From contig JAFEAP010000023.1 of the NCBI GenBank assembly GCA_018266355.1, forward strand, positions 151,758-183,757: a stretch of 32,000 nucleotides of DNA. Reading direction: 5' to 3'. Shown piece after piece: positions 2,355 to 26,453 of this stretch. Numbering within the stretch: position 1 is the stretch's first letter; each line of letters opens with the position of its first letter. A program made the position numbers and the translations under genes. Source of the DNA: Bdellovibrionales bacterium (lineage in GTDB: Bacteria; Bdellovibrionota; UBA1018). The notes beneath the pieces were generated by a model. That model was not told where the DNA came from. It saw nothing but the letters and a program-made list of their open reading frames with translations, and did not search any database.

Positions 2355-2362
2355 CGGATTCG

Positions 2363-3768: not shown

Positions 3769-3792
3769 AAAATTTCGGATCGCAGTGCGTGA

Positions 3793-6294: not shown

Positions 6295-6489
6295 ACGTGC
6301 CTCGGGTAATGGGTGTATCGAAGAGTGTTGCCTGGAAATCGCCACCGAATAATGAGTCCTTCACGACACCGAGTGGGCCTTTTGGGTGACAAGACGGAAT
6401 CTTGATAGGGTGAGGCCACTTACCTCGCTTTTAGTTTTTGATAAGCTCTTCGCTACTGAGTCGGAAACGCCCGATTCGATTTTTAGCGT

Positions 6490-7407: not shown

Positions 7408-7408
7408 G

Positions 7409-8743: not shown

Positions 8744-8797
8744 TCGACGCGGGTTATAACATGTTACTCTCTATATAGAAGAGGAACCCCTCCCGAA

Positions 8798-9727
8798 ATG
8801 AAGCCCGCCCGGCTCGTCGACGCCATCGCGAAGTTTCTGGAAGTGCTTGAAATCCAAAGGAAAGTTTCGAGCCACACCCTTCGGGCGTACGCCTCCGACC
8901 TCGCCGAATGGGTCGGGGCGATGGCCGAGCAGGGATTCGCGGATCTCGCGGCGCTCGACCGGGGTTTGAAACCGCTTCACCTCCGCACGTACCTCGCGAA
9001 GAAAGTGGAAACCCACGAGAAGTCGAGCCTTTGCCGGAAGCTCTCGGCGATCCGGAGTTTCCTGAAACATGCGCGCGCGGAGGGATGGCTCACGCGCGAC
9101 GTCGGTTCGCTCGTACCTTCGCCGAAACTCGAGCGGCACCTGCCGAAATTCCTGCGCATCGACGAAGCGGAAGAACTGATCGAAGCGCCGGATACGGCGA
9201 CCGTGCTCGGACGCCGCGATCGCGCGATTTTCGAGCTGATTTACGGCTCCGGACTGCGCGTGAGCGAAGCGGTCGGGCTCGACCGCGGCGCCGTCGATCT
9301 CGGCGAGGGGTGGGTCCGCGTGCTCGGGAAGGGCTCGAAAGAGCGCACGATTCCGGTTTCGCCGGCCGCCGTCGCGGCGATCGATTCGATGCTCGGCGAT
9401 GCCCCGCAGGGCGATCCGGCCGAGGCGCGGCGGGCGCCGCTGTTCACGAATTTCCGCGGGGGAAGGCTCACCTCCCGGAGCGTCGCGCGCATCCTCGCGA
9501 AGCACCTCGTGCGCATCGCCGCGAGCCGGGCGATTTCGCCGCACGGACTTCGTCATTCTTTCGCCACGCACTTGCTCGCGGCGGGCGCGGATTTACGGGG
9601 AATTCAGGAACTTCTCGGCCACGCCCAGCTCTCCACGACCCAGCGCTACACTCACGTCGATTTGGGCGGCCTCGTCGATGAATATCGCGCGGCGCATCCC
9701 CTGGAAAAGGCGCGCAAGCTAAGGTAG
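8798..9727 (+). CDS. xerC: Tyrosine recombinase XerC/XerD-like
   Basis: 309 aa from ATG 8798 (the track ORF from 8207 is over-extended across divergent trmFO). Integrase residues in GSGLRVSEA, GKGSKER, HGLRHSFATHLL, LGHAQLSTTQRYTH. XerC versus XerD is not resolved by eye. Confidence 0.88.
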   Translation: MKPARLVDAIAKFLEVLEIQRKVSSHTLRAYASDLAEWVGAMAEQGFADLAALDRGLKPLHLRTYLAKKVETHEKSSLCRKLSAIRSFLKHARAEGWLTRDVGSLVPSPKLERHLPKFLRIDEAEELIEAPDTATVLGRRDRAIFELIYGSGLRVSEAVGLDRGAVDLGEGWVRVLGKGSKERTIPVSPAAVAAIDSMLGDAPQGDPAEARRAPLFTNFRGGRLTSRSVARILAKHLVRIAASRAISPHGLRHSFATHLLAAGADLRGIQELLGHAQLSTTQRYTHVDLGGLVDEYRAAHPLEKARKLR

Positions 9728-9744
9728 CCTTTTCACCGCACCGC

Positions 9745-10368
9745 ATGGATTGGCTCGTCGATTTCCTCCTTAATTTTTACGGTCCCTGGCCGTACCTGCT
9801 GATTTTCGGAATTCTGCTCCTCTGCGGGTTTGGGCTGCCGGTTCCCGAGGACGTCACGCTCTTCGCGGGGGGGCTGCTCGCGTACTACGGCGTCTGCGAC
9901 CTCTGGCTGATGATCCTCGTTTGCTTCCTCGGCGTGATGCTCGGCGATTCGGCGATGTGGTTCGTCGGCCGCCACTACGGTCGGAAAATCCTGAAGAAGC
10001 CTTTCTTCCATCGCCTCCTACCCGACGAGCGGATCGCGCTCGCGTCCCGAAAACTGAACAGCAAGGGCTCGAAGCGCATGCTCTTCTTCGGGCGATTCAT
10101 GCCGGGGCTTCGCGCCCCGATTTATTTCACGTCGGGACTCCTGCACGTTCCGTACATCCGATTCTTCTCGATGGACGGACTCGCGGCGGCGATCAGCGTC
10201 CCGCTCTTCGTCGGCTCCGTCTATTACTTCGGCGATTCGCTCGATTCCGTCATCCGGTGGATCAAACGCTTCGAGCACGGGATCGTCTTCATCGTGATCG
10301 GCGCGGGACTTTTTCTCGCGTTCCGCTGGTGGCGTTCGCGCCGGACCACGCCCGAGGGGGTCGCGTGA
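9745..10368 (+). CDS. DedA-family membrane protein
   Basis: 207 aa. GFGLPVPEDVTLFAGGLLAYYG, GVMLGDSAMWFVGRHYGRKIL, FFGRFMPGLRAPIYFTSGLL motifs. Confidence 0.9.
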   Translation: MDWLVDFLLNFYGPWPYLLIFGILLLCGFGLPVPEDVTLFAGGLLAYYGVCDLWLMILVCFLGVMLGDSAMWFVGRHYGRKILKKPFFHRLLPDERIALASRKLNSKGSKRMLFFGRFMPGLRAPIYFTSGLLHVPYIRFFSMDGLAAAISVPLFVGSVYYFGDSLDSVIRWIKRFEHGIVFIVIGAGLFLAFRWWRSRRTTPEGVA

Positions 10369-11357
10369 GAGCGCGCCTCGCTTTCGTTTTGCCCGCGATC
10401 GGACTCGGGCTCGCGTTCGCGTTCGGCGGGTGTACTTCCCGTTCGACGCCCGAGCCCGCGAATCCGACGGCCGAAGCGGTGGCGGTCGCGCCCGCCGATG
10501 ACGCGAAGACGAAGCAGGCGATCTTCGATCTCTGCCGGAAGATGGACGAGTCGATCGCGCCGTTCAGGTGGGACCTGAAAACCTGCGCGGACATCCCGTG
10601 GCGCACGGACCGGAATTCCGAGGAGGGCCGCCCGCTCATCTACGCCGAGTTCGGCGAACCGACGAGCGCGAACAAGACGCTCATCCTCGCGATGGTCCAC
10701 CCCGACGAGATCACGCCGCTCTACCTCGGCTTCCAGCTCGCGCAGTACTTCCGCGCGCACGAGTCCGAACTGAAGGACGCGCACGTCGTCGTCGCGCCGT
10801 TCGTGAATCCGGACGGGTTCTTCCGCAAACCGCGGACGCGGATGAACGCCCGGGGCGTCGACGTGAACCGGAATTTCGATACTCCGCTCTGGCGGGAGAA
10901 GGCCGTGAAGGAGTGGAACACGAAGCTCGGGAAGAACCCGCGCCGTTTCCCCGGCAACGCGCCGAACTCCGAAGCCGAGACGAAGTTCCAAGTCGACCTG
11001 ATCGAGCGCTTCAAACCGGCGAAAATCCTTTCGATCCACGCGCCGCTGAACGTGATGGACTACGACGGCCCGACGAGCCTCACCCTCGATCGCTTCGCGA
11101 AAGAGTACGTGCACGAGTGCTACCAGCTCCGGAACCGCATCCGCGCGAAAATGACCGGATATTTCCCGGGTTCGCTCGGGAATTATTCGGGCGTCGAACG
11201 GGGTATCCCGACGGTCACCCTCGAACTCCCGTCCGCGAATCCGAAGCTCGCGGAAGCGTATTGGAAGAAGTTCCAGCCCGGGATCCACTCGATGGTCGAC
11301 TTCAAGTTCGAGAACGACGATCGGAAGATCGTGACGAATCCGCCCCGTCGTAAATAG
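10365..11357 (+). CDS. M14-family zinc carboxypeptidase-like lipoprotein (MpaA-like)
   Basis: 330 aa from GTG 10365 overlapping the dedA stop. Lipobox LAFAFGGC. M14-like blocks HPDEITPLY, VNPDGFFRK, NARGVDVNRNFD, ILSIHAPLNVMDYDG. Confidence 0.75.
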   Translation: MRARLAFVLPAIGLGLAFAFGGCTSRSTPEPANPTAEAVAVAPADDAKTKQAIFDLCRKMDESIAPFRWDLKTCADIPWRTDRNSEEGRPLIYAEFGEPTSANKTLILAMVHPDEITPLYLGFQLAQYFRAHESELKDAHVVVAPFVNPDGFFRKPRTRMNARGVDVNRNFDTPLWREKAVKEWNTKLGKNPRRFPGNAPNSEAETKFQVDLIERFKPAKILSIHAPLNVMDYDGPTSLTLDRFAKEYVHECYQLRNRIRAKMTGYFPGSLGNYSGVERGIPTVTLELPSANPKLAEAYWKKFQPGIHSMVDFKFENDDRKIVTNPPRRK

Positions 11358-11384
11358 GCTCGCCCGACCGTAGCGAGGCGGGCT
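11357..11384. terminator. Possible bidirectional terminator between convergent genes
   Basis: Imperfect inverted repeat GGCTCGCCCG...GAGGCGGGCT between convergent stops, followed by TTCTAGTT. Confidence 0.35.
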
Positions 11385-11387
11385 GTT

Positions 11388-12560
11388 CTAGTTCGGAAGC
11401 TTCGTGACGAGATCCGCGCGGACCCAAGCCGTGCGATCGGAAGAACCGATGCGCGGGCTTTCGATCTTCATCCATCCGTCCTTCTCTTCGACGAGATTCG
11501 CGACGGCGGAGCGGTCGAGCGTCTGGACGGCGGTTCCCTGCATTCCGGGCGAGGCGCGGAGCACGGCGCGCGGCACGCGGACGATCACCGTCGTCCGGAC
11601 GTTCTCGGCGCGGACGGCGGAGTTCGCCTTCGACCGGATCGAATCGGCTTCGGTCGGGGCGGACGGAGCGGAGGGCGCGATCACCGGCGAAAGCGCTTGT
11701 TTGCCCTCGTGATAGAGGTAGATGCCCGAACCGATCGCGAGGACGATCGCGACCCAAAGCGCGATCATCGGACGCAGGCTCGCGCGGTATTCGGAGACGG
11801 CCTTCTCGGAAGCGAGCGTCGACTCGATGATCGGGTCGACGGACGAGCTCGTGTCGATCACTTCGACGGCTTCCGGCGGCGGGTTCATCACGGTCACGTC
11901 GACTTCCATGTCGTCGATCGCTCCTTCGGCCGAGATCGCGTTCACGGTCGGGATTTCGTCGATCGCGTCGTCGTCGAGCTCGGACGGGAACGCGCGCTCG
12001 ATCAGGTCGATCGGGGTGACCGTCGGCTTCAGCAGGAACGCGGGCGGCTTCGCGTAGGCGAAGACCGGGGGCGCGGCGGCGACGTCGTCTTCGATCGCGT
12101 TCGCGTCGGCGATCGCGATGGATTCGAAAGAGGGCACGAACGGCGGCGGAGCGCTCGGGCGGGTCACGATCGCATCCATCGCCATGTTCATCGTCATCAT
12201 CGCCGCGTTCGGCGGCGGCGGCGTCGCGGATCGGGCGGACGGAGACGGCGCGGGCGCGATCGCGTCGATCTTCGCCGCGATCTTCGTCGCGTTCGAGAGT
12301 TTGTCAGTCAGATCGCGGATCTGCGATTCCATCGATTGGATCTTCGTCGTCGCGTTCGCGGTCTGGGTGAGCCGGAGTTCGACTTCGAGCTGGGCTTCTT
12401 CCTCGAGGCGGCGCGCCTTCACATAATCGGCGAGAACCGCGCTCCGATGGACGAGCGCCATACCTTTGCACTTCGCGCAGCGGACGTAGGCCTTCTTCGT
12501 GTTCTCGAAGTCGATGCCGGCGGTGACCAGTTCTTCGCAGTGAGGGCAGTTCCAACGCAT
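11388..12560 (-). CDS. N-terminal zinc-ribbon, coiled-coil, acidic/Pro-rich linker, TM and C-terminal SH3b-like domain protein
   Basis: 390 aa from ATG 12560 (track starts at 12728). MRWNCPHCEELV...VRCAKCKGMAL, coiled coil, ASLRPMIALWVAIVLAIGSGIYLY TM, then VPRAVLRASPGMQGTAVQTLDRSAVANLVEEKDGWMKIESP...GRTAWVRADLV-like SH3. Confidence 0.65.
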   Translation of the reverse strand: MRWNCPHCEELVTAGIDFENTKKAYVRCAKCKGMALVHRSAVLADYVKARRLEEEAQLEVELRLTQTANATTKIQSMESQIRDLTDKLSNATKIAAKIDAIAPAPSPSARSATPPPPNAAMMTMNMAMDAIVTRPSAPPPFVPSFESIAIADANAIEDDVAAAPPVFAYAKPPAFLLKPTVTPIDLIERAFPSELDDDAIDEIPTVNAISAEGAIDDMEVDVTVMNPPPEAVEVIDTSSSVDPIIESTLASEKAVSEYRASLRPMIALWVAIVLAIGSGIYLYHEGKQALSPVIAPSAPSAPTEADSIRSKANSAVRAENVRTTVIVRVPRAVLRASPGMQGTAVQTLDRSAVANLVEEKDGWMKIESPRIGSSDRTAWVRADLVTKLPN

Positions 12561-12783: not shown

Positions 12784-13107
12784 ATGAAAATCGCGTTCGT
12801 CCTCGCCGCCCTCGTCGTTTCGTCCGTCCCGAACTTCGCTTTCGCCGCCACCGAAGTCGTGTGCGAAGCGGCCACGATCGTCACGAACCCGGGCGGAGAC
12901 GGCTCGACCCAAACCCAGGGCGACGATGACGGCGAAAAGATCAACAAGCGGATCGCCGAGCTCCAAGCCCAAGGCAAGAAGGTCCAAATCAAGGCCCTCA
13001 CGTCCTCCGCGGCCGCGCTTTCGCCAGCGGCGGCGCTGAACCAAAGCCGTCAAATCGTGACGAAGGGATTCATGTACTCGAAGAACTGCGCGGCGCTCGA
13101 ATACTGA
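12784..13107 (+). CDS. Small secreted hypothetical protein
   Basis: 107 aa with clear signal peptide MKIAFVLAALVVSSVPNFAFA and GGAG-like upstream sequence (CCCGGAGTTTTTATG). Confidence 0.6.
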   Translation: MKIAFVLAALVVSSVPNFAFAATEVVCEAATIVTNPGGDGSTQTQGDDDGEKINKRIAELQAQGKKVQIKALTSSAAALSPAAALNQSRQIVTKGFMYSKNCAALEY

Positions 13108-13122: not shown

Positions 13123-13914
13123 TTACGTGCCCGTAGGAGATTCGACCGACGGCGGTAACGCCGTGGCCGACGGGCCCGCGGGCCCGGCCGTTTCGTCGAA
13201 GATCCGAATGACGACGCGGCGATTGCGATCGTTCGCGGTCGTCTCGTCGACGGCGGCCGGATCGCGTGCGGGCTCGACTTCCGGCCGCGTGTCCGCATAA
13301 CCGATCGCCACCAGGCGCTTCGGATCGAAACCGTGGTCGATGAACGCGCGCACGACGCGCGCGGCGCGGGCGCTCGAGAGTTCCCAGTTCGAAGGATACG
13401 GACCGGAGAGGATCTTCCGCGAGTCGGTGTGCCCTTCGACGGCGACCTTGAACTGCTTGTGTTCGGCGGTTTGGATACGGGAAATCTCGGCGAAGAACGG
13501 TTCGAGGGTCTTCGCGCCTTCGGGCGAAATCTCCGACGAGAGCGTGTCGAAGAAGGTCGTCGATTGGAAGACGAGCGAGACGCCGTCGGCGCCGAAGCGC
13601 ACGGCGGCTTCCTTCTCGAGGCCGTTTTTCTCGATCACTTGGTGGAGGAAACGCGCGTACTCGGCGTTCGCCGACTTGAAATCGCCGCCGAACTGCTTCG
13701 CGACCGACTCGCGCACCTTCTCGTACTTCGTCGCATCGAGCTTCGCGAACGAGAAGAGCATGATGAAGAAGCCGCAGAGGAGCGTCATGATGTCCGCGTA
13801 GGACATCAGCCAGTTCGACTCGTCGTGGCCGGCGGCGTGGAGATACGGATCGATCTCCGGGTGCCGGCTCTGCTCGACGACTTCGGGTTGCTTCTTTCTA
13901 TCCAGCCAGCCCAT
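13123..13914 (-). CDS. motB: MotB-like stator protein with OmpA-like peptidoglycan-binding domain
   Basis: 263 aa. NWLMSYADIMTLLCGFFIMLFSFAKLD ion-channel helix; VAVEGHTDSRK...NWELSSARAARVVRAFIDHG and YADTRPEVE OmpA-like motifs. Confidence 0.9.
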   Translation of the reverse strand: MGWLDRKKQPEVVEQSRHPEIDPYLHAAGHDESNWLMSYADIMTLLCGFFIMLFSFAKLDATKYEKVRESVAKQFGGDFKSANAEYARFLHQVIEKNGLEKEAAVRFGADGVSLVFQSTTFFDTLSSEISPEGAKTLEPFFAEISRIQTAEHKQFKVAVEGHTDSRKILSGPYPSNWELSSARAARVVRAFIDHGFDPKRLVAIGYADTRPEVEPARDPAAVDETTANDRNRRVVIRIFDETAGPAGPSATALPPSVESPTGT

Positions 13915-13921
13915 ATCGGAT

Positions 13922-14704
13922 TTACGCCGCCTTCTTCAGGACGCGTTCGCCCGGGAGGAGGAACGAGTTCAGCCCTTCGCGCATCGCGACCGGGTTCACT
14001 TGGGACTTCAGCATGACCGCGCCTTCCATCATGATCCGGCGGAGGTTCATCTCCTCGCGCGTGCGCTCGGTCAGGTTCTCCGCGATCGGGAGGAAGACGA
14101 GGTTCGCGAGCGCGATCCCGTAAAGGGTGCCGATGAGGCCGACGGACATCGCCGGGCCGATCAGCGACTGGGAATTCGGTTGGCCGATCTTCTGGAGGAC
14201 GCCGATCATCCCGAGCGTCGTCGCGAGGAGGCCGAACGCCGGCGGGAAACGCCCGATCGTGCGGAACATGTTCGCCTCGAGCAGGTAACGGCCCTCGATC
14301 GTCTTGATCCGCTGTTCGAGCGTCGAACGGATCTCCTTGTCGGTGAGGACGCCGCCGGCGACGAGCGTGACGGCTTCCTTCAGGAACGGGTGCGAGATCG
14401 CGTTCGCGGCTTCCTTCAGCGTCGGCAGGCCCATCGCGGCCTTGCGATTCAATTCGAGGAGCTGCGAGATCGCGCCCTGGTAGTCGACGGCGTTCCGGCC
14501 GAGCACCCGGTTCACGAAGACTTTCGTGAGGGCGAAAATCTTGGAAAGCGGGAAACTGATCGACGTCGCGGCGAACGTCCCGCCGATGACGATCAGGATG
14601 CCGTGAAAATCGAGGAAGAACCCGAGATTGTCCGTCGTGGCGGTCATCGCGCCGTACATCACGCCGAGTCCGACGAGGAGCCCGAAGAGGGAAGAGGGAT
14701 TCAT
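13922..14704 (-). CDS. motA: MotA/PomA-like stator protein
   Basis: Track ORF starts at 14743. The likely ATG is 14704 (MNPSSLFGLLVGLGVMYGAM). DFHGILIVIGGTFAATSISFP, FRTIGRFPPAFGLLATTLGMIGVL, GLIGTLYGIALANLVFLPIAENL. Confidence 0.9.
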   Translation of the reverse strand: MNPSSLFGLLVGLGVMYGAMTATTDNLGFFLDFHGILIVIGGTFAATSISFPLSKIFALTKVFVNRVLGRNAVDYQGAISQLLELNRKAAMGLPTLKEAANAISHPFLKEAVTLVAGGVLTDKEIRSTLEQRIKTIEGRYLLEANMFRTIGRFPPAFGLLATTLGMIGVLQKIGQPNSQSLIGPAMSVGLIGTLYGIALANLVFLPIAENLTERTREEMNLRRIMMEGAVMLKSQVNPVAMREGLNSFLLPGERVLKKAA

Positions 14705-15201
14705 GCGGCCTTCTTTCCGTCGCCCTTCAAGGCGACCTTCCAAAGCTGGTACTGGGTATCGACGTAGTTATCGTCGAGGCTGCGCAGGCGCTTCGCGAGC
14801 TCCTGGGTGCAGCGGCGGTAGAACTCGCACTTAGCGGTTTCGTTCTGGGCGAGGAAGCGCTGGAACACTTCCGCGGGAAGATGGAACGCCTTCACGGCGG
14901 TCAGCGCCTGGACGGTGGCCGAACGGGGAGCATCGTCGACGAGGGACATCTCGCCGAACGAATGGCCCGCCCGAAGCTGGGCGATCTCGACGAGGTCGCC
15001 CGAGGCGCGGTTCGTCTTGAAGATTCCGACCTGGCCTTCCATGACGAAGAAGAGCCCGCCCGAAGGCTCCCCTTCGATCACCATGAGGGTGAGCGCGTCG
15101 TAGGTGAGGATCTCGCCGCTCTTCAGGAACGTCTCGAGGTCCGCGTCCGAAAACGCGGCGAGGAGCTTCACTTCGCGGAGGTGGGCTGCGGTCATGTTCA
15201 T
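14701..15201 (-). CDS. Cyclic-nucleotide-binding (CNMP) domain protein
   Basis: 166 aa. GLFFVMEGQVGIFK, ELxxGHSFGEMSLVDDAPRSATVQALTAVKAFHLP, the canonical phosphate-binding cassette. No HTH recognised. 4-nt overlaps with both neighbours. Confidence 0.88.
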   Translation of the reverse strand: MNMTAAHLREVKLLAAFSDADLETFLKSGEILTYDALTLMVIEGEPSGGLFFVMEGQVGIFKTNRASGDLVEIAQLRAGHSFGEMSLVDDAPRSATVQALTAVKAFHLPAEVFQRFLAQNETAKCEFYRRCTQELAKRLRSLDDNYVDTQYQLWKVALKGDGKKAA

Positions 15202-17570
15202 GAGGCCTTCCGGATCGAAGCGACGTTATTCGAGGCGTAAGCCGCGAAGAGGCGGTCGTTCACGTCGGCGAGGTTCACGAGCGTGTCCTGGGCCATCATC
15301 TTCACGCGGTTCAGCACCTTGCGTTCGAGCGCACCGTAGATGTCGCGGCTCGGGTTCTGCATGACCGCGAGTTCCTCCTCGAGGTCGCTCACGAGGTCGC
15401 GCGGACACTTCGCGAAGACGGAACCGCGGATGTCGTCGCGGCAACCCTTCAGGAAGTTCAGCAGCTCGTCGTGGCGCAGGCTCAGGATCACCTCGAGCAG
15501 CTGGCCGTCCGGGAGGAAGGCGAGCGTGTCGACGGATACGAGCTTGTGCTTAACGACCCGGGCGCTCTCCGGGTTGTTCATCTCGAGGTTGCGGACGACC
15601 GATTGCTGCACGGTCGGTTCGCTGCGCTCGAGCAGGTTCACGAGCACCTCGCTGCCCGGCAGGGCTTCGGTGTTCAGCCGCGGGTTTTCCATCCGCTTCC
15701 GCTTGAGGGCGTTCGCGACGTTCTGGATGTAGTCGCGCGGGAGGTAGTCGATCCGCGAAAGCTCGGCGAGGAGTTTCAAGCGGGTCGCCTCGTCGATCGC
15801 GCCGAAGATCGCCGCCCGCTTCTGGTTATCGCACTGGGTGAGCACGATCGCCTTCACGGTGAGGGACTCGTTCCGCACGAGTTCCATGATCTGCATGCCG
15901 TCCATCTCCGCGAGGTAGTCGAACTGGGCGGAGGAGCGGGAAGCGACGACGGCCATCTTGCCGGCGACCGTCCGATGATGGAGCTTCTTCAGGAGTTCGA
16001 GTTTCTCGGCGTCGTCGAGTTCGATCGGCGTGCGCGCGTAGAATTCCATCAGCTCGTTCAAGTCGTGCTGGAGCGAGGGATCGCGAAGGAGATCGAGGAC
16101 TACGCTTTCGCCGAAGATCGAGAGGTAAGCCGACGTCGTCTCGATGCCTTCCTCGGTGAGGATCCGGCCGAAGACGTATTTAGCCACGCGCGGTTGCTCG
16201 GCGAAAATGCCCATGAGTTCGTCGCGGAGGCGATCGATCTCATAGCGGCGCCCGATCGAGGATCCGCCGTTCGACGGCGGGGCTCCTTCGGGCGGGGCGA
16301 GGTTCGCGAGCGTCGCCTCGCCGCCGGAAGCCGGCAGCGCCGGCATCGGAGCGGCGGCCATCGGCATGTTCTTCGTCTCGATCGTCGTCTTCGATCGAAG
16401 CGTCGAGAAGGCGATGAAGCCGAGGAGGCCGAGGATGATCGCGGCGAAAATCGAGGCGTAGGTGCGCATCGTCTTGAATTCGGTGGTGAGCGCGTCTCCG
16501 TTTTCGATGCGTTCGATCTTCTCGAAGTGCTGGAAGTTCTCGGTTCGCTGGTCCTTCGTCACGTTCGATTCGCGGTCGGTGCGGTTCGTCGAGTCCGAGC
16601 TCGTCGTCCGGTTGTTCGCTTCGGAGGTCGACGCCGTGCGGTTATCCGTGGTGTTGTGGTTCTGTTGGTTGTAGTTTTCCGTGCGTTTCGATTCGAGGGA
16701 TTCCTTCGAATCCCGGCTCTGGGTCTTCGCGTAGGTCTTTCCGTCGGCGCCGACGTAAGTCGGCATACCGGCGAACTCGGATCCTTCGTTCGCGATGCGC
16801 GGAAATTTCATCGCCTTTGCGCGGAGGTCGGAATTCTTGAAGTCGCCGACTTTCAGCTGGGCCATCTCGAGGATGTTCGCACGGTCGCCGTCCGGAATCG
16901 CCTCCTCCATGAGGAGGGTCGCGCCGATCGATTTCACCCGCACGGCGACGCCGGCGGTCTCGAAGTACTCGCCCGCGGTGCCGTAGCCGGCTTCCTCGGC
17001 GTTCACGAGTTCGGTCTGGAGCTCGTAGTCGGAAAGCATGCAGTCCTTCGGGCAAACCTTCGCGATGACTTCCTCGATCGCCCCCTTGTACTGCTTCGTG
17101 ATCCGGTCGCGGAGTTCGGTGACTTTCGCCGCGCTTTCGGCGGGCGACGGGAAGCGCGCGGTTTTCGTCGCGACTTTCACCGGGTAGTCGAGGGTCTCGA
17201 GGTAGCGGTTCACGAGGTCGAGGACCCGCGTGCGGGTGTTCGGGCCGATTTTCTCGTCGATGAGGACTTTCACTTCGGCCGAGGCCGGTTCGAGCTCGCC
17301 GCGCGCGCCGGCGTCGACTTCGTCGAATCCCGGGGCGATCGTGTCGGCGGAGGCGACGTCGACGTCGACGTCGATCGAGAGGAGTTTGCACTCGTCGGAG
17401 CAGTACTTCATGAAAACGGGATCGACGATCGCGTGGATCGCGGTGCGCGCGGTCTTCTTCACTGATTCGATCGCGGCGGTCGTGCCGGAATCCTTGGCGT
17501 GGGCCGGGGCGGCAAAGACCGCCGCCGAGGCGAGGAGGGATAAATAGAGGATCGACGACTTCGTTTTCAT
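15198..17570 (-). CDS. Signal peptide + duplicated CxxxC periplasmic region + TM + FliG-like cytoplasmic C-terminal domain protein
   Basis: 790 aa. MKTKSSILYLSLLASAAVFAAPAHA signal. Periplasmic part with FliF/YscJ-reminiscent ASAEVKVLIDEKIGPNTRTRVLDLVNRYLETLDYPVKVATKTARFP. TM YASIFAAIILGLLGFIAFSTL. C-terminal VVKHKLVSVDTLAFLPDGQLLEVILSLRHDELLNFLKGCRDDIRGSVFAKCPRDLVSDLEEELAVM resembling the FliG C-terminal domain. Confidence 0.75.
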   Translation of the reverse strand: MKTKSSILYLSLLASAAVFAAPAHAKDSGTTAAIESVKKTARTAIHAIVDPVFMKYCSDECKLLSIDVDVDVASADTIAPGFDEVDAGARGELEPASAEVKVLIDEKIGPNTRTRVLDLVNRYLETLDYPVKVATKTARFPSPAESAAKVTELRDRITKQYKGAIEEVIAKVCPKDCMLSDYELQTELVNAEEAGYGTAGEYFETAGVAVRVKSIGATLLMEEAIPDGDRANILEMAQLKVGDFKNSDLRAKAMKFPRIANEGSEFAGMPTYVGADGKTYAKTQSRDSKESLESKRTENYNQQNHNTTDNRTASTSEANNRTTSSDSTNRTDRESNVTKDQRTENFQHFEKIERIENGDALTTEFKTMRTYASIFAAIILGLLGFIAFSTLRSKTTIETKNMPMAAAPMPALPASGGEATLANLAPPEGAPPSNGGSSIGRRYEIDRLRDELMGIFAEQPRVAKYVFGRILTEEGIETTSAYLSIFGESVVLDLLRDPSLQHDLNELMEFYARTPIELDDAEKLELLKKLHHRTVAGKMAVVASRSSAQFDYLAEMDGMQIMELVRNESLTVKAIVLTQCDNQKRAAIFGAIDEATRLKLLAELSRIDYLPRDYIQNVANALKRKRMENPRLNTEALPGSEVLVNLLERSEPTVQQSVVRNLEMNNPESARVVKHKLVSVDTLAFLPDGQLLEVILSLRHDELLNFLKGCRDDIRGSVFAKCPRDLVSDLEEELAVMQNPSRDIYGALERKVLNRVKMMAQDTLVNLADVNDRLFAAYASNNVASIRKAS

Positions 17571-18334
17571 TATTTCCCCTCGCTTTCGGAGGCGAGACCC
17601 CGGGTCGCGCGTTTGCGATCGAGGTATTTCTTCAGGGCCAAGTTCTGCGGATTCAGCCGGAGCGACTGCTGCCAGGACCGGACGGCGAGCTCGTAGCGGC
17701 CGAGGCGGTCGAGAAGCGTGCCGCGCATCTCATAGAGTTTAGGGGCGGTCGGGAAGTCGACGAGGAGGTCCTCGACCTCGAGGAGCGAGGCTTCGTAACG
17801 GCCTTCACGGTAGAGACGTTTGATGCGGTCGAGACCGGCGAGGTAGCTCTTATCCGCGTGCGGCGTCGAATCGGCGGAAGGCATCACGCCGAGGGTCTGT
17901 TCGATGTCGTTCCGTTCGCCCTCGAACTCGCCGCCGTTTTTCGGGAACGATTCGGTGATTTCGCGGTCGGCGATGACCGGCTTCTTGTTCCGGTAGGGAT
18001 CGTCGAGGTCGGCCGTGGTTTCGTCCGCGCCGGCCGCACGGGTCGGCAGCGAGACTTCGTCGAGCTTCGTCGACTGGTCGGGGAAGGTGACTTCGAAACT
18101 GCGGTCGCCCTTACGCGTGCGGAAAACGGTTCCGGTCTCGGCGGTCGCGGCCGCGCCGCCGCCGGCTTGGTACCCTTCGAAAGGATTCGTGATCGGACCG
18201 TCGGATTTTTTCTCGTTCGTGGCGAAGACCGTGCTCATCGTGGAACAAGCGGGGACGGCGGCGAGCACGACGAGCGTCGTCGTGAAGGCTCGGGTCATCT
18301 CGGCTAGGTTTTTCTCGGGTTTGCGGTTCGCCAT
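17570..18334 (-). CDS. TPR-containing lipoprotein
   Basis: 254 aa. Lipobox LVVLAAVPAC. TPR-like SLLEVEDLLVDFPTAPKLYEMRGTLLDRLGRYELAVRSWQQSLRLNPQNLALKKYLD. Overlaps the next gene by 1 nt (TAATG). Confidence 0.7.
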   Translation of the reverse strand: MANRKPEKNLAEMTRAFTTTLVVLAAVPACSTMSTVFATNEKKSDGPITNPFEGYQAGGGAAATAETGTVFRTRKGDRSFEVTFPDQSTKLDEVSLPTRAAGADETTADLDDPYRNKKPVIADREITESFPKNGGEFEGERNDIEQTLGVMPSADSTPHADKSYLAGLDRIKRLYREGRYEASLLEVEDLLVDFPTAPKLYEMRGTLLDRLGRYELAVRSWQQSLRLNPQNLALKKYLDRKRATRGLASESEGK

Positions 18335-18353
18335 AAAATCCCTTTAAATCCTT

Positions 18354-19475
18354 TTAAAACAGGGCACTGATGCCCAATCCATATTCGATCCCGGAAACGC
18401 TTTTCTCGGTCCCGGTGATGAGCGTCGTCGCCTTCGGCCGGTAACCGAGCGTCGTGCTCACGGCCCAGTGCTTCGCGAGCCGCCATTCGTAGCCCGCGCG
18501 GAAGACTCCGCCGAGGTAGCCCGACGCGTACGTGCCGCCGACCCCGGTGACGATCGTACCGCGCACCTGGTTGTAGTTCTCTTCCGCGCCGATCAGGTTC
18601 CACGCGTGGACGAAGAGCATCGTCATGTTGAAGGAACCGTAGATGCGGGCGCCGGTATCCGTCGTGGTCGACTCGACCGGCGATCCGGAGAGCGTACGGA
18701 CGTCGGTGATGTAGTCGAGTTCGAACCCGACTTCCTTTTTCCGGTTGTCGTAGCGTTCGACGAGGCGGAAACCGAGGCTCAGGCAACTCGAGCGCTCCCC
18801 CGCGTCCGGTTCGTTCAGGTAAGAGATCGTCCCGCGGTATTGGAGCGTCGGGATGTATTCGTTTTGTTTCACGGAAGCTTCCATCTGGGAGAAATCGACG
18901 CCTCGACGGTACGCGGAAGCGCGGGAGGTCTCCGAATTGTAACTGCGCGACCAGACGACGCTTCCCGTAGCGGCGTCGGCCGTCGTCATCGAGAGCACCA
19001 TTCCGGTGGGTTGGAACGAGAACGCGAGATCCATGAAGTTTTCGATGCCCTGGGCCTTCGCGATGCGCGCGAGTTCGTTCGGATTCAACTCCGCGGAAGT
19101 CACGAGGATCTGGTCTTGGTTCAGCGTCGCCTTGCGTGCGCGGCACGGAAGACACTGCACGACGCGCGTCTTCGTCGTGGCGAGGATCTTTTCGGTGACG
19201 ACGAGTTCGAGGTGGTTCCGGAACGACGGCGGGATGTTCTCGCTCATCGCGATGTTCCGGATCGCGAGATCCTTCAATCCGCTCACGCTTCCGTTTTTCA
19301 GGTCGTATTCGAAATCGGAGAGGAGGTCGCCGAGGACATCGTAGAAATTCCGCGTCTCGGTTTGGGAAGCCGCGTGCGCGCGCGCCGGCATCGCCGACGT
19401 GAGTACAGCGAGGGTGGTAGCGAGTGCAGTGATGAAGCGGCGATTCTGAAGATTCATAGAGGGTCTTTCGGACAC
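18354..19475 (-). CDS. Exported protein with CsgG/FlgO-like N-terminal domain and C-terminal outer-membrane beta-barrel
   Basis: 373 aa if GTG 19475, or ATG 19457 (MNLQNRRFITALATTLAVLTSAMPARAHAA signal). LELVVTEKILATTKTRVV...GMVLSMTTADAATGSVVWSRSYNSE is CsgG/FlgO-like. Alternating strands end in YGLGISALF with terminal Phe. Confidence 0.6.
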   Translation of the reverse strand: MSERPSMNLQNRRFITALATTLAVLTSAMPARAHAASQTETRNFYDVLGDLLSDFEYDLKNGSVSGLKDLAIRNIAMSENIPPSFRNHLELVVTEKILATTKTRVVQCLPCRARKATLNQDQILVTSAELNPNELARIAKAQGIENFMDLAFSFQPTGMVLSMTTADAATGSVVWSRSYNSETSRASAYRRGVDFSQMEASVKQNEYIPTLQYRGTISYLNEPDAGERSSCLSLGFRLVERYDNRKKEVGFELDYITDVRTLSGSPVESTTTDTGARIYGSFNMTMLFVHAWNLIGAEENYNQVRGTIVTGVGGTYASGYLGGVFRAGYEWRLAKHWAVSTTLGYRPKATTLITGTEKSVSGIEYGLGISALF

Positions 19476-19504
19476 TCCTTCCTCACTCCCGTTTCGGGTC
19501 GGGA

Positions 19505-19526
19505 CGAAAACTTCTTTAAGTTTTCG
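19505..19526. promoter_or_regulatory. Perfect 9-bp inverted repeat upstream of the six-gene operon
   Basis: CGAAAACTT-CTTT-AAGTTTTCG read directly from the sequence. Confidence 0.4.
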
Positions 19527-19632
19527 GGGCTTAGGCAGAGATTTCCGGGTTCGGCGACGAGAGTGATGAAAACATGACTCAGGAAATCAGTCGGGTATTC
19601 CGATGAGGACGGGTGAAGGACTCCGGAATCGC

Positions 19633-20607
19633 ATGGGAAACCGTCTTCTCCGCCCGACATCGACGAAATTCGTCAGCGCCAGCTTCCTGGCGGCGCTCGT
19701 CGGCGGCCTTTCCTCGTGCGCGGTCCTCCAACCGAACGTGATCGAACCGACGGCCGACGCGCCCGCGCCGCCCGCCGCCGTGGAGGCGCCCGGTTACGCC
19801 GGCGTTCCGCATCCGCTCGGACTCCAAATCGGCGACGTCGCCGCGCTCTTCGCGACGCCCGGTGCGCCGAAGCGCGGAAGCGACGAGATGAAGACCTGCG
19901 CGGCCGACTACGATGCGCTCGCGAAGGCCACTAAGGCCAAGGACGAACTCAAACAAGGACTCCTCGAACTCGTCCGTAAGGAGCCGATCCGTTATCACTG
20001 GTGCTTTTACTCGAAGATCCTCGACCTCGAGGAGAAACTCCGCGGGGCCCAGATGCTCGACGATCGCCAGCGTGCGGTCGTCGAAGCGTATCGATTCCTC
20101 GCGCCGCTTTCGCGCGTTTTCTACCGCGAATTCCACGACTCCCGGTACCTGCGGTGGGCGGTCTCGTACTACCGCCGCGCGAGCGAACTCGCGTTCTATC
20201 GGCGGGTCGAGACTTCGCCGGGATTGACCCAGGAACTCGTCGGCGCGGGCGGCGACGAGACCACGCGAGGAATCACCGAGAAGGCGACGAGCGTGCTCGA
20301 AAAGTACGGGATCATCGTCCCGGAACGCCTCCAGCCCGGGCAGAGTCCCGACGAGATTCCGAAGGGTGACGCCCTTCCGAGCGACGCTTACGTGAATACC
20401 GGTTCAGGCGTGCTCGATAGCACGGCGACCGGCAGCGAAGCCAAGCCCGGCGCAGGAGCTGAAGATCCGACGGCGTCCACCGCCGCCTCTAATCCTCCTG
20501 CGGCAGCTCCGGACTCCGTCGTTCCGGACGCTCCCGCCGAAACGTCGCGCGCGCCCGCGGCTGAGAGTTCGTTTCCGGCGCTGACGAACCCGCTGCAAGG
20601 CGAATAG
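19633..20607 (+). CDS. Hypothetical lipoprotein
   Basis: 324 aa from MGNRLLRP (track ORF from 19603). Lipobox LVGGLSSC; Ala/Pro-rich C-terminus. Confidence 0.6.
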   Translation: MGNRLLRPTSTKFVSASFLAALVGGLSSCAVLQPNVIEPTADAPAPPAAVEAPGYAGVPHPLGLQIGDVAALFATPGAPKRGSDEMKTCAADYDALAKATKAKDELKQGLLELVRKEPIRYHWCFYSKILDLEEKLRGAQMLDDRQRAVVEAYRFLAPLSRVFYREFHDSRYLRWAVSYYRRASELAFYRRVETSPGLTQELVGAGGDETTRGITEKATSVLEKYGIIVPERLQPGQSPDEIPKGDALPSDAYVNTGSGVLDSTATGSEAKPGAGAEDPTASTAASNPPAAAPDSVVPDAPAETSRAPAAESSFPALTNPLQGE

Positions 20608-21718: not shown

Positions 21719-22831
21719 CTACTCCGGGATCAGCCCGCGGGCCCAGTCTTGCGGGCGTCGGATCCGCCAGATGAACCCGTCGAGGACGTAGTGGGTCGCT
21801 TGGGGGAGCGTCAGCAGGGCGACGAGGATCGCGGTCAGCGCCGGTCCGGGCCGGAAGTCGCCGAGGAATCGGTGAAATTCGGGAAAGAGCGCGACGTGAT
21901 CGCGCCAGATCCAAACGTCCCAGAACCCCTCCTCGAGGTAGGCGAGGAGGAAGAGTACCCCGAGGTAGACGGGGACGAGGGAGAGCGTGAAGAAACGTCC
22001 GCTTCGGATTCGATACGCGCCGACGGAAAGCACGCGACGCGGGTCTCGCTCGGAGCCGGTTCGCCCGGTGATCCACACGAGTGCGAGGTAAGGCACGCCG
22101 TGGGCGACGACGTTCGTCAGCGTGAAAAGGAGATCGCTGTTGAAGACGACGATCCCGACGTTCCACGCGAGCGCCGTTCCGACGATCCAAAGCACCTTCG
22201 TCGCCGAGAATCGGCCGATGCGTCGACGGACGGAGAACTGCTCGAGGATCCAAGCCGCGCCGATCGCGAGCGCCGCGATCCGGGCGAGGAGCTCGACTGC
22301 GGGCGGAAGTCCGGTCGCGAAATCTCCTGCGATGAACCAAACGAAGTCGCGCGGGAGATGCGCATGCCAGTACACGAGGGGATAGAGGGTCGCCGCGTAG
22401 ACCGCCGCGCGGTCGAGGGGGGTGACGCCGCTTCCGTCCTTCGCTCCGTAGAGCGCGAGAAATCCGTACTGCTGCCTTACGAAGTGGAAGACCGCGACGT
22501 AAGTGAGCACGCGCCAAAAGAGCGCGGGATCGACCGAGTGGATGAGCGCGCCGACCGCCCATGCCGCGATCGGGATCCACAGGAGCGCTCCGCGGTGCTC
22601 CGCGCGTTCCTTCGGATCGAGGTAAGTCCGAAAGAGCGTCGAGTAGACGTGGGCGACGTCGACGAGCAAGACGAGGGCGAGCCATCCGTACGGGCCGAGG
22701 CTAGGGATCTCGAGCTCTCGCGCGCGCGCGTAGACTCCGACGGCGATCGCGGCGGCGGCTGTGAACCACGCGGGCCCGATGAAGAACGCGAGATCGAATC
22801 CGGGGCCGCGGATCCACCTAGACTTTTCCAC
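21719..22831 (-). CDS. Polytopic membrane protein with conserved-looking histidines
   Basis: 370 aa, multiple TM helices; VDVAHVYSTLFRTYLDP, VAVFHFVRQQYGF, YWHAHLPRDF, VVAHGVPYLAL, QATHYVLDGFIWR. Confidence 0.65.
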   Translation of the reverse strand: MEKSRWIRGPGFDLAFFIGPAWFTAAAAIAVGVYARARELEIPSLGPYGWLALVLLVDVAHVYSTLFRTYLDPKERAEHRGALLWIPIAAWAVGALIHSVDPALFWRVLTYVAVFHFVRQQYGFLALYGAKDGSGVTPLDRAAVYAATLYPLVYWHAHLPRDFVWFIAGDFATGLPPAVELLARIAALAIGAAWILEQFSVRRRIGRFSATKVLWIVGTALAWNVGIVVFNSDLLFTLTNVVAHGVPYLALVWITGRTGSERDPRRVLSVGAYRIRSGRFFTLSLVPVYLGVLFLLAYLEEGFWDVWIWRDHVALFPEFHRFLGDFRPGPALTAILVALLTLPQATHYVLDGFIWRIRRPQDWARGLIPE

Positions 22832-24524
22832 GGCGCTCCGTCCGTCCGAGATCGGAGAGCACCCGCTTCGCGGCGAGGACCCCCCGGTACTGGGCCTCCT
22901 CGAAAAGCGACATCCCCGAGATATCCGAATGCGCGAAATGCACGCGGCCGAACGAGCGCTCGAGGCCCGCGCGCTCGTCGCCCGAGAGGTATCCGGGCGC
23001 GGGCGAGATCATCCCGTGACCCCAAACCCGGTAATCGATTCGTGTCACGCGGCTTCGGATATCGGGATGCATCCCCTCGAGGTCGGCGAGGATCCGTTCG
23101 CGCCATTCGGCGGGCGTCGTCCGCGCGGCACGGAGGCGGGCCTCCTTCGCCGGCCGATCGGAAAGCGGCCAGTAATGAGTGAGGACGCTCCCTCGCGCGA
23201 TCGACTCGGTCTGGTGAGTCGCGACGACGTAGCCGAGCGAGTCCGAGTAATAACTCACGTTATCCCACGCGGTGAGCGGAGCGTGACCTTCCTCGGTCGT
23301 CCCTGGGAGATCCTCGACGGTCAAGTTCGCGACCAGCCAGGGGGCGTAAACGGCCGAGTCGATCGGCGCGCGGGCCGCTTCGGGCAGGATCCGATTCGCG
23401 ACGAACCGTGGAGTCGCGACGACGACGCTCTTCGCGCGGATCCGGGAGCGGGCCCCGTCGTTCGCGCGCAACGTATCGACGAGTACCGCGTCGCCCTCGA
23501 CCGAGATCCGGGTCGCGGCCTCGCCGGCGCGGATTTTTCCCGCACCGAGGGCCCGCAGTTTCCCGGCGAGGAATCCGTTCCCCTCCGGCCAGGCGAGAAT
23601 CGCCTGGGAATCGGCGTTTGCGGCGACGCCGCGCCGGGCGGCATGGTAATGGATGCCGGCCCAAGCCGACGTGCGCTCGAGCGGGCTGCCGAAATCGTCG
23701 CGACACGCGTAGTTCAAGTACCACCGCAGCGGCCGCGACCGATATCCCTCGCGGTCGAGCCATTCCGCCATCGACATCCGATCGAGCTCCGCGAGGTCCT
23801 TCGCGCGGAAACGGTCGCGCGACCCTTCCGCGATCGGGATCGCGAAGATCGGCCGTCCGTCGGAACCTTTCCGGTCGCCGAAGCGGCGCATTTCGTCGAA
23901 GAACCGCCGCATCTCAGCGCGTTCGTCGCCGGTGAGTCCCGCTTGGGGCACGATGCCTTCCTGGAATTTTCCCTCGATCCAGAGCCGTTCGACGGCGTCG
24001 TGGCAGATCATCGTCTCGTCGAACGTCGGGCGTCCCTTTCCGTCCCGACCGGTGATCGCGCCGATTTCCTCGAGGAATTCGTGGACGAAGCGCGATTCCG
24101 CGTTCGGGATCGGAAGATAGTGGGCCCCCCACGGATAGGCGGAAACGGCGTTCTCGCCCGACATCGAGTTTCCGCCGGTGCGGTCCTCGAGTTCGAGGAG
24201 GAGGTAATCGGAAAATCCGTTCCGGGAGAGCCACCACGCGGCGGAGAGCCCCGCGATTCCGCCGCCGAGGACGAGGACCGGGACGTCTTCGATCGCTCCG
24301 GCGGGTGCCTCGGCGGGAATCGTCCCGTCGCGCAGCCGGTGGCCGAGGGCCGCGTTCGGCGAGTGCTCCTCGATCGGGATGGCGGTGAAGCGGAGGTCGC
24401 GCAGCCAACGGTGCCAGGGAAACGCGGCGGCGGCGAGAAAGCCGCCGGCCGCGATCAGGAAGTGCCGACGGTCGAAGGATCCGGCGCGCCTCGCGCGGTC
24501 AGTGGAGGTACGCGTCCCACTCAT
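22818..24524 (-). CDS. FAD-dependent (amine-oxidase-like) oxidoreductase with N-terminal export/anchor segment
   Basis: 568 aa. FDRRHFLIAAGGFLAAAAFPW and VPVLVLGGGIAGLSAAWWLSRNGFSDYLLLELEDRTGGNSMSG dinucleotide-binding motif. Confidence 0.8.
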   Translation of the reverse strand: MSGTRTSTDRARRAGSFDRRHFLIAAGGFLAAAAFPWHRWLRDLRFTAIPIEEHSPNAALGHRLRDGTIPAEAPAGAIEDVPVLVLGGGIAGLSAAWWLSRNGFSDYLLLELEDRTGGNSMSGENAVSAYPWGAHYLPIPNAESRFVHEFLEEIGAITGRDGKGRPTFDETMICHDAVERLWIEGKFQEGIVPQAGLTGDERAEMRRFFDEMRRFGDRKGSDGRPIFAIPIAEGSRDRFRAKDLAELDRMSMAEWLDREGYRSRPLRWYLNYACRDDFGSPLERTSAWAGIHYHAARRGVAANADSQAILAWPEGNGFLAGKLRALGAGKIRAGEAATRISVEGDAVLVDTLRANDGARSRIRAKSVVVATPRFVANRILPEAARAPIDSAVYAPWLVANLTVEDLPGTTEEGHAPLTAWDNVSYYSDSLGYVVATHQTESIARGSVLTHYWPLSDRPAKEARLRAARTTPAEWRERILADLEGMHPDIRSRVTRIDYRVWGHGMISPAPGYLSGDERAGLERSFGRVHFAHSDISGMSLFEEAQYRGVLAAKRVLSDLGRTERRGKV

Positions 24525-26064: not shown

Positions 26065-26278
26065 GGACGGCGCTCGCGATGATCTGGGCGATGGCCATCG
26101 CCATCGATCCGACGACGATCGCGACCGCGATGTTCTTCTCCTGGCGGATCTCGTGCCAGAGGCTACCGGGGGTGATCTTGTCGAAGACGTAGAATCCGAC
26201 TCCGAGGGCGACGAGCCCGACGACGGAATAGACGAGGGCGGCGATGAGACTTTTCAATCCGAGGGCTTCCATGGGCAT
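26057..26278 (-). CDS. DUF350-like small membrane protein
   Basis: 73 aa, two TM: SVVGLVALGVGFYVFDKITPGSLWHEIRQEKNIAVAIVVGSMAMAIAQIIASAVHG. Confidence 0.75.
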   Translation of the reverse strand: MPMEALGLKSLIAALVYSVVGLVALGVGFYVFDKITPGSLWHEIRQEKNIAVAIVVGSMAMAIAQIIASAVHG

Positions 26279-26283
26279 TTCTC

Positions 26284-26421
26284 CTATTTATGGTAGGCGC
26301 GGGGTCCCGTGGGACTGAACCGGCCGGTCGTGACCGAACTCCAAAGGCTGTAGCCGCGCGACGAGGCGACGGCGGCGAGGAAAATCAAAAGGGTTCCGAA
26401 GTAGAGGTAAAATTTTTGCAT
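26284..26421 (-). CDS. 45-aa single-pass membrane peptide (not in ORF track)
   Basis: Manual translation: MQKFYLYFGTLLIFLAAVASSRGYSLWSSVTTGRFSPTGPRAYHK*. It fills the gap between two tightly spaced operon genes. Confidence 0.55.
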   Translation of the reverse strand: MQKFYLYFGTLLIFLAAVASSRGYSLWSSVTTGRFSPTGPRAYHK

Positions 26422-26453
26422 AAAATCCTTAAAGCGCTCTTCGCGTTTTCCTT

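Follow-up and report, generated by a model that had tools for sequence, protein, structure and literature searches.

The flagellar motor is built around a rotor-stator core of FliF, FliG and MotA5B2 stator units, and to our knowledge every characterised torque interface between MotAB and FliG lies inside the flagellum. All other 5:2 motor systems that we know of (Ton, Tol, Agl-Glt, GldLM and Zorya) couple to their partner differently. Among the proteins related to such systems, FliF holds the rod and the export gate by means of its third ring-building motif (RBM3) and its beta-collar, the injectisome protein SctJ (PrgK/EscJ) forms 24-mer rings, CpoB is the TPR protein of the Tol-Pal operon, and engineered FliF-FliG fusions reportedly form rings. 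Here we describe an operon of six genes that combines a flagellar-type stator with a membrane-anchored FliG-like protein and several predicted envelope proteins. It was found in a 32-kb stretch of DNA (hereafter the window, to the whole of which positions refer) from a metagenome-assembled genome (MAG) named 'Bdellovibrionales bacterium'. We give about an even chance to the reading that this operon encodes a self-contained, MotAB-driven trans-envelope machine, made up of a flagellar rotor-stator module and produced during the motile phase. Searches of the full-text literature, which took in a survey from 2025 covering MotAB along with non-flagellar relatives (PMC12505986) and outside whose coverage the reviews of 5:2 motors fell, returned no description of such a gene set or machine, as a first-pass annotation of this DNA had surmised; the literature match for PF01706 concerned ordinary FliG.

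The six-gene operon and its products

Six tightly packed and partly overlapping open reading frames (ORFs), all on the minus strand, span positions 13123-19475, as first annotated. In order, they encode an outer-membrane protein (OMP; 18354-19475; 373 amino acids [aa] from GTG 19475, or 367 aa from ATG 19457 according to NCBI), a TPR lipoprotein (17570-18334; 254 aa), a FliF-like/FliG-like fusion (15198-17570; 790 aa, identical to JST04_11130), a stand-alone cyclic-nucleotide-binding (cNMP) protein (14701-15201; 166 aa), the flagellar-type stator A subunit MotA (13922-14704; 260 aa) and the stator B subunit MotB (13123-13914). When the junctions were read directly, the stop codon (TAA) of the OMP gene was found to be separated by 19 nucleotides (nt) from the ATG of the TPR gene, instead of the 20 nt initially counted, and the remaining spacing was as first described: the TPR and 790-aa genes share one base (TAATG), 4-nt overlaps (ATGA) join the 790-aa gene to the cNMP gene and the cNMP gene to motA, and 7 nt lie between the TAA of motA and the ATG of motB. 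The overlap with the cNMP gene indicates that motA starts at ATG 14704 and not at the upstream TTG 14743 chosen by the ORF finder. Third-position GC is of the coding type in all six genes (0.77-0.86). The possibility of chance ORFs in a high-GC window is ruled out by this coding-type composition together with the Pfam domains and the existence of hundreds of homologs. Plus-strand genes flank the block on both sides, one for a 107-aa secreted protein (12784-13107) and the other for a lipoprotein (19603-20607). A scan for sigma-70 promoters found 0 sites, and a terminator scan gave counts at the level of shuffled sequences. The gene identities, predicted compartments and tight coupling proposed in the first-pass annotation all hold.

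The 790-aa protein is recognized by Pfam as containing FliG_M (38.7 bits, cut-off 25) and FliG_C (43.7 bits, cut-off 23.3) domains, between residues 560 and 762. In an AlphaFold model built on 33 homologs (predicted local distance difference test, pLDDT, 72), a signal peptide is followed by two alpha-beta-beta-alpha-beta domains (28-138 and 144-254), a disordered linker of 80 residues (261-340), a conserved helix running into a single transmembrane (TM) segment (338-391), a second linker of 45 residues and an all-helical FliG-like module (435-789), which this topology puts in the cytoplasm. Unlike the soluble FliG of ~330 aa, the protein thus has a signal peptide and a TM helix. A Foldseek search of the PDB with the model, the check that had been suggested for the proposed FliG similarity, gave full-length FliG as the top match (E ~1e-6, ~315 aligned columns, that is, the whole of FliG), which bears out that similarity together with the Pfam scores above the gathering thresholds; phmmer against the PDB likewise matched the FliG-MC fragment of T. 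maritima (E 1.9e-9). The best non-FliG matches of the model were chains of the FliF MS-ring (7bk0, 8t8p and 6scn; E 4e-4 to 1e-3, 217-280 columns), a ring-building motif (RBM) fold of the periplasmic half that had escaped the first-pass annotation.

Charges of the FliG torque helix are kept in 30-33 of the 33 homologs, in which K708, K/R724, E731-733 and R742 align with E. coli K264, R281, D288/D289 and R297 (basic, basic, acidic and basic, respectively). By contrast with these conserved charges, the two motifs associated with the switch are absent: the positions aligned with the FliM-binding EHPQR motif read E-S-L-T...E and those aligned with the MFxF hinge read L-V-S-[IVL], with no variation towards either motif among the 33 homologs. 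The score against the fliG equivalog TIGR00207 (47.7) also stays far under the cut-off of 226.7. It is therefore unlikely that the 790-aa protein binds FliM or sits in a C-ring, and its FliG-like module looks, as far as sequence can tell, built for stator contact and not for a switch complex.

The model gives this protein the layout of a natural FliF-like/FliG-like fusion, in which the likeness to FliF appears at fold level only. The resemblance to the flagellar rotor-stator core comprises an acceptor with the N-M-C architecture and the torque-helix charges of FliG, a periplasmic RBM fold of which FliF is the best match, and an overall layout equal to that of the engineered ring-forming FliF-FliG fusions (PDB 8z4d). 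There are also clear differences: the protein here is a single, naturally occurring polypeptide that has a cleavable signal peptide and only one TM helix; only two RBM-like domains precede the linker in the model, RBM3 and the beta-collar being lacking; the linkers are long and flexible; and the absence of EHPQR and MFxF means that there is no FliM/FliN switch. The operon itself carries genes for an outer-membrane barrel and lipoproteins instead of those for the export gate, rod, hook and L/P rings. In its periplasmic half, the protein shows the same order of parts as SctJ (signal peptide, RBM1, RBM2, TM helix, cytoplasmic tail), whereas SctJ is lipidated and has only a short tail where the 790-aa protein carries an entire FliG-like module; structurally the two match weakly (3j1x, E 0.14), and Pfam YscJ_FliF finds no match in the 790-aa protein. 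Each periplasmic domain contains one invariant CxxxC pair (residues 57/61 and 173/177), located at the same place, the end of helix 1. These pairs fit an oxidising compartment, where the cysteines could form disulfides or a metal site, and one pair is retained in a distant one-domain relative (P0383, 'CPGRCEL').

The stator subunits are of the flagellar type. MotA (Pfam MotA_ExbB, E 5e-20) has full-length matches in the PDB to MotA of C. sporogenes (Clostridium sporogenes; E 4e-34) and to Vibrio PomA (E 4e-31), and in NCBIfam the tolQ model reaches an E-value of only 0.01, versus 1e-41 for MotP. This assignment is to the type and not to a named equivalog, as no NCBIfam equivalog cut-off (MotA, PomA, MotP; MotB, MotS) was reached, the best scores being 141.6 versus 394 for MotP and 132.6 versus 264 for MotS. 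The charged cytoplasmic loop of MotA is conserved (N-K-K-A-S-x-G-L-x-A-L-N-E/D). MotB contains the Pfam domains MotB_plug and OmpA, and 67 orthologs share its channel Asp (SYADMMTLL) and its GHTD...NRRV motifs. With plug, channel Asp and peptidoglycan-binding motifs kept, all of them features shared with the flagellar core, the stator looks functional. Pfam detects no TolA or TonB domain among the operon proteins.

The cNMP protein, encoded between the FliG-like gene and motA, is a confident member of the Pfam family cNMP_binding (64.6 bits versus a cut-off of 27.5, E 8e-18). Its phosphate-binding cassette (FGEMSL..PRSAT) and C-terminal helix are conserved in 62 orthologs. It has no helix-turn-helix DNA-binding domain, its 166 aa matching CRP at residues 11-132 only.

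In the OMP, a signal peptide precedes a periplasmic alpha/beta domain, which is followed in the AlphaFold model (pLDDT 78) by a C-terminal beta-barrel of 8 strands with Phe as its last residue. It belongs to no Pfam or NCBIfam family and has no FlgO or CsgG match at E-values up to 0.1; its 335 homologs are all annotated as 'hypothetical' and are devoid of Pfam domains. In Foldseek searches of the PDB, the barrel matched OmpW, NspA, OmpX and OmpA (E 2.5e-6 to 1e-4), and the N-terminal domain matched the LpoB C-domain (4q6l, E 8e-5), TolB (7mx5, E 3e-5) and GNA1162 (4hrv, E 1.7e-3). The 'CsgG/FlgO-like' label initially given to this protein thus finds no support at the sequence level; what is left of it is a fold resemblance to LpoB and to the N-domain of TolB, which we take to be in the same fold group as CsgG and FlgO. 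The models suggest an 8-stranded anchor barrel with a periplasmic LpoB/TolB-N-like domain of the docking type, and not a pore. A secretion or curli-like (CsgG) channel can be ruled out, the barrel being 8-stranded and matching OmpW, OmpX and OmpA. The second gene product has a lipobox, a long disordered region and C-terminal TPR repeats (TPR_2, TPR_1 and TPR_16 at residues 168-231, all slightly under the Pfam cut-offs). Relatives share its lipobox Cys, which a simple pattern detects in 44 of 72 of them.

Conservation, promoter and genomic context

Scanning one genome per species yielded 80 related loci, nearly all of them in MAGs labelled Bdellovibrionota, Oligoflexia or Bacteriovoracaceae, with a few bearing another phylum label or none. 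Collinearity was counted in the 54 loci whose flanks reach at least 2.3 kb on either side. In all 54, the OMP, TPR, FliG-like, MotA and MotB genes are present, collinear and on one strand, so that the arrangement cannot be due to chance. Ten of the 54 loci lack the cNMP gene, as does every distant locus examined, and we therefore consider its product as a clade-specific accessory and not as part of the core. As a consequence, co-conservation applies to five of the six genes, and of the possible second-messenger input proposed in the first-pass annotation, the cNMP-binding protein with its intact cassette stands and the core role does not.

The five genes also stay together at larger distances, where proteins are 22-33% identical and the gene order is permuted. 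In the Silvanigrellales-type order (OMP-TPR-MotA-MotB-FliG-like), the five proteins of locus L081 are 24-28% identical to those of the window. On a metagenome contig of 69% GC (L084), the five-gene core lies within an 11-gene same-strand block (82-12529, 23-33% identity) that also carries extra lipoproteins and small barrels of no known family. On a 2.17-Mb contig (L082, 9001-15573), the order TPR-FliG-like-MotA-MotB is directly followed by MoxR AAA, DUF58, DUF4381 and VWA genes, and in L083 only the TPR and FliG-like genes are found together. The TPR gene is thus present in these four distant loci as well as in 54 of 54 closer ones. That the partnership has outlasted both rearrangement and deep divergence speaks most strongly for a joint function of the proteins. 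We also observed that the MoxR/DUF58/DUF4381/VWA run of L082 corresponds to an operon of the Bat/aerotolerance type and that the downstream neighbour of the operon in the window has an SH3 domain, as presumably does BatE.

A profile search of 1.84 billion representatives retrieved 1341 proteins at E-values up to 1e-3 and 106 at up to 1e-30, including dozens of full-length representatives. A second homology search, started from a member of the Silvanigrellales type in order to find cultured carriers, returned only 10 proteins. Homologs that bear a name are called 'hypothetical', 'FliG C-terminal domain-containing' or, by mistake, 'flagellar motor switch protein FliG'; JGI gave this last name to about a quarter of the homologs listed, which are membrane proteins of 750-990 aa.

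Two neighbouring genes may belong with the operon. The divergent gene at 19603-20607 (plus strand) encodes a 334-aa lipoprotein with a conserved lipobox and no Pfam match, which adjoins the cluster in 51 of the 54 loci and is a probable accessory component. Downstream of motB, the gene at 11388-12560 (minus strand) encodes a zinc-ribbon/coiled-coil/TM protein with a C-terminal SH3_3 domain, which probably starts at the Met of MRWNCPHCEE; it was detected at this place in 27 of the 54 loci and is a possible accessory. The gene for the 107-aa signal-peptide protein, which lies between motB and the zinc-ribbon/SH3 gene and belongs to no family, was found in none of the 80 related loci.

Upstream of the operon, we found a promoter of the FliA (sigma-28) type that the first-pass annotation had missed, along with the flagellin gene of the window and the flagellin synteny of relatives. 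Exactly two copies of the pattern TAAA-N16-18-CCGA[AT]A are present in the 32 kb, versus 0.1 expected, and both read TAAAG-N16-CCGAAA with identical spacing. One (19492-19518, minus strand) lies 17 nt ahead of GTG 19475, where the first operon gene starts, and the other (30762-30788, plus strand) precedes the flagellin gene (30993-31832, plus strand). The strict E. coli sigma-28 pattern, TAAA-N14-17-CCGATA, has 0 matches in the window, the two sites being recovered when A is allowed at the fifth -10 position. In relatives, a FliA-type match with at most one mismatch was present in 22 of 63 regions upstream of the OMP gene, versus 45 of 3000 random windows, and none was found in the distant loci L081-L084. 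In B. bacteriovorus, the FliA consensus is TTAAG-N16-CCGATA, and FliA drives two-thirds of the attack-phase promoters, many of which belong to non-flagellar genes (PMC3627812). The operon is thus probably FliA-dependent and made in the motile phase, to judge from the motif, and a promoter of this type fits an independent machine and a flagellar accessory alike.

The flagellin gene of the window, located 11.5 kb from the operon, encodes both Flagellin_N (E 3.6e-40) and Flagellin_C (E 1.3e-21) domains. Upstream sequence was sufficient in 49 relatives, and in 28 of these meaB and one or two flagellin genes lie 1-6 kb from the cluster; a flagellin gene is also found beside one distant relative, with none near the distant loci L081-L084. 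No fliM, fliN, flhA or rod gene was detected in the window or in the flanks of relatives, nor does any other flagellar family recur in these flanks. The first-pass view of the operon as standing apart from the flagellum therefore agrees with the lack of fliM, fliN and rod genes, whereas the FliA-type promoter and the flagellin neighbours make the evidence for this separateness weaker than had been supposed. In the window, the flagellin gene is next to meaB (29490-31832, plus strand), and the ~9 kb between the cluster and this flagellin/meaB block contain genes for an M48 peptidase, an amine oxidase, a spermidine-synthase-like protein, two DUF4178 proteins and an SPFH protein.

The rest of the window includes several other groups of genes. 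Most of the intervening genes just mentioned form a same-strand run (21719-29495, minus strand), which may be a membrane module related to polyamines. Besides an uncharacterised 429-aa protein and a flavin amine oxidase, it encodes a 584-aa protein that contains a spermine/spermidine-synthase domain, two DUF4178 proteins and an SPFH/Band-7 protein ending in a SHOCT tail. A low-GC island (3310-6162, minus strand; 47-50% GC, versus ~63% elsewhere) comprises two genes, one for a 152-aa exported protein and the other for a 789-aa protein with a zinc-protease-like motif (HEVAHLFGIGH) and a C-terminal Big_9/Cadherin_5 domain. No rRNA or tRNA gene that could cause this low-GC stretch was found, and the island was probably acquired horizontally. 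Finally, the product of the gene at 2363-3235 (minus strand) is a lipoprotein whose domain is assigned to glycosyl hydrolase family 46 (chitosanase; E 2.9e-34).

A candidate machine and its alternatives

From the gene identities, folds, topology signals, conservation and promoter motif described above, we infer a contact between MotA and the FliG-like module, the formation of a ring, a coupling to the outer-membrane proteins and a cellular role, along the following lines. The machine would operate without a type III export apparatus, rod, hook or switch. MotA5B2 units, anchored to peptidoglycan via the OmpA-like domain of MotB and gated by its plug, would be turned by ion flow, and the cytoplasmic face of MotA would push against the FliG-like module at its conserved, charged torque helix. 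The 790-aa protein, with its single TM pass and its two periplasmic RBM-like domains carried on a long flexible linker, would oligomerise as a ring, in effect an 'MS-ring plus FliG ring' made of one polypeptide, which the stators would rotate or at least place under tension. Its periplasmic domains would hand the work over to an outer-membrane complex composed of the barrel with its LpoB/TolB-N-like domain and of one or two lipoproteins, namely the TPR protein and possibly the divergently encoded lipoprotein without recognized domain. In one clade, the cNMP protein might gate or brake the rotor-stator contact in response to cyclic AMP or cyclic GMP. Thanks to the FliA-type promoter, the machine would be made with the motile (attack-phase) programme, and its output would be mechanical work at the outer membrane (surface movement, handling of the envelope or sheath, contact with prey) and not secretion.

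The delivery of work at the cell surface is reminiscent of the gliding and type IX motors (AglRQS-Glt of Myxococcus and Bdellovibrio; GldLM-GldKN/PorKN, PorG and SprE/PorW), which also combine an inner-membrane 5:2 motor with TPR proteins, small outer-membrane barrels and lipoproteins, SprE/PorW being itself a TPR lipoprotein. However, no component is homologous beyond the MotA/ExbB superfamily, and those motors have no FliG-like acceptor.

Several points weigh against a self-contained machine of this kind. The FliA-type promoter, the flagellin synteny and the flagellin neighbour of a distant relative fit a flagellar role equally well. The resemblance to FliF does not go beyond the fold: a profile of 14 periplasmic sequences searched against the PDB, and each of these sequences searched against Pfam, gave no match at all. 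The alpha-beta-beta-alpha-beta fold is moreover a common one. The long disordered linkers predicted on both sides of the TM helix would fit poorly with a rigid rotor. Lastly, the basic pair and the acidic residue of MotA are conserved but stand 1-2 positions off the canonical E. coli R90/E98 register. With the PDB and Pfam searches empty, a sequence-level homology to FliF or SctJ was discarded for the periplasmic domain.

Foremost among the alternatives is that the operon encodes an accessory of the flagellar motor, which we hold to be unlikely on balance, if a serious contender. Its motAB genes would then be one of several stator sets, of which B. bacteriovorus has three, and the co-encoded proteins would form a scaffold or regulator at the flagellar base, with the outer-membrane barrel and the TPR lipoprotein in roles like those of FlgO/FlgP, MotX/MotY or PflA/PflB, and the membrane-anchored FliG-like protein docking, parking or counter-holding stators beside the true C-ring. 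This would account well for a stator of the flagellar type, for a FliA-type promoter that is conserved in relatives and has the same spacing as that of the flagellin gene, and for the flagellin genes located within 1-6 kb in more than half of the relatives and beside a distant one. On the other hand, we know of no flagellar accessory in which a periplasmic domain is joined to a cytoplasmic FliG homolog that keeps the torque-helix charges. The synteny includes the unrelated meaB and may be merely inherited, and it does not extend to the distant loci L081-L084. Nor is the promoter decisive, since FliA of B. bacteriovorus also drives many non-flagellar genes (PMC3627812). It is true that stator genes of Bdellovibrio stand apart from other flagellar genes (PMC11323537), and that the known ARM-like ring proteins FlgY, FlbB and MotE pair with TPR proteins (PflA, MotC, MotK) and contact stators (PMC13023049). 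More generally, flagellar scaffolds, whether of the E-ring/collar type (FlgY/FlbB/MotE with PflA, PflB, MotC, MotK and FlcB) or of the Vibrio H/T-ring type (FlgO, FlgP, MotX and MotY), share with the operon an ARM/FliG-like repeat protein and a TPR protein co-encoded with a stator, an outer-membrane protein with a lipoprotein, and FliA-type expression. The ARM domains of the E-ring are nevertheless periplasmic MgtE_N domains that surround the MS-ring, whereas here a true FliG M+C pair is found, in the cytoplasm according to the topology. Furthermore, Pfam and NCBIfam showed no sequence match to FlgO, FlgP, MotX, MotY, PflA or PflB among the operon proteins.

It is improbable, in our estimation, that the 790-aa protein forms no ring at all and works as a force transducer in the manner of Ton and Tol, that is, as a monomer or dimer pulled or wound by the motor. 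The grip would be through the cytoplasmic FliG domain and not through the TM helix, and the N-terminal domains would tug on the OMP and the TPR lipoprotein, in parallel with TolA-TolB-Pal-CpoB. Linkers of 80 disordered residues in the periplasm and 45 residues in the cytoplasm would suit such a transducer, as would an 8-stranded barrel that is an anchor and not a channel, an outer-membrane partner with a TolB-N/LpoB-like domain, and a TPR partner that recalls CpoB. With Tol-Pal and Ton, the operon has indeed in common an inner-membrane 5:2 ion motor, a single-pass protein that crosses the periplasm to an outer-membrane partner, the TolB-N/LpoB-like domain, the TPR protein and an output that would be mechanical, not secretory. 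The motor, however, is of the MotAB type, with a plug, and not of the TolQR/ExbBD type; the coupling would go through a cytoplasmic FliG domain, in contrast to a TM helix inside the motor; and there is no homolog of TolA, TonB, the TolB propeller or Pal. In addition, FliG and RBM domains normally work as rings, and the complete FliG N-M-C module that is kept here is more than a grip needs.

It is very improbable that the tethered FliG-like domain is a brake or decoy that competes with rotor FliG for the stators and immobilises or sequesters them under control of the cNMP protein, stopping swimming on attachment to a surface or to prey: the torque-helix charges conserved without switch motifs and the position of the cNMP gene between the FliG-like gene and motA would agree with it, but the cNMP gene is dispensable (absent from 10 of 54 loci and from all distant relatives examined), and the strict co-conservation of a dedicated motAB pair, an outer-membrane barrel and lipoproteins would be left unexplained.

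Implications for motor diversity and evolution

Whatever the function of these proteins, their annotation as 'FliG' would inflate flagellar gene counts and distort the inference of motility from genomes. If the operon does encode a flagellar accessory, it would still provide a new type of motor component, a second, membrane-tethered FliG, which would be relevant to how predatory bacteria start, stop and adapt their sheathed flagella.

If, on the contrary, the self-contained machine is the correct explanation, it would add a new route for ion-motive energy across the Gram-negative envelope, would make a minimal rotor-stator pair, compact in its genetics, available to structural and single-molecule studies, and would bear on the evolution of the flagellar motor by presenting the rotor-stator module separated from the export apparatus. 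A further step, which we propose only tentatively and regard as doubtful at present, is that it represents a previously unrecognised class of rotary machine, in which a natural fusion ring is spun by a dedicated MotAB pair independently of the flagellum and transmits rotation or tension to an outer-membrane complex. Such a class would be widespread in Bdellovibrionota and present in at least one unrelated high-GC lineage. Its existence would mean that the flagellar rotor-stator module can exist and work without a type III export apparatus, either as a stripped-down derivative of the flagellar motor or as a relative of its ancestor.

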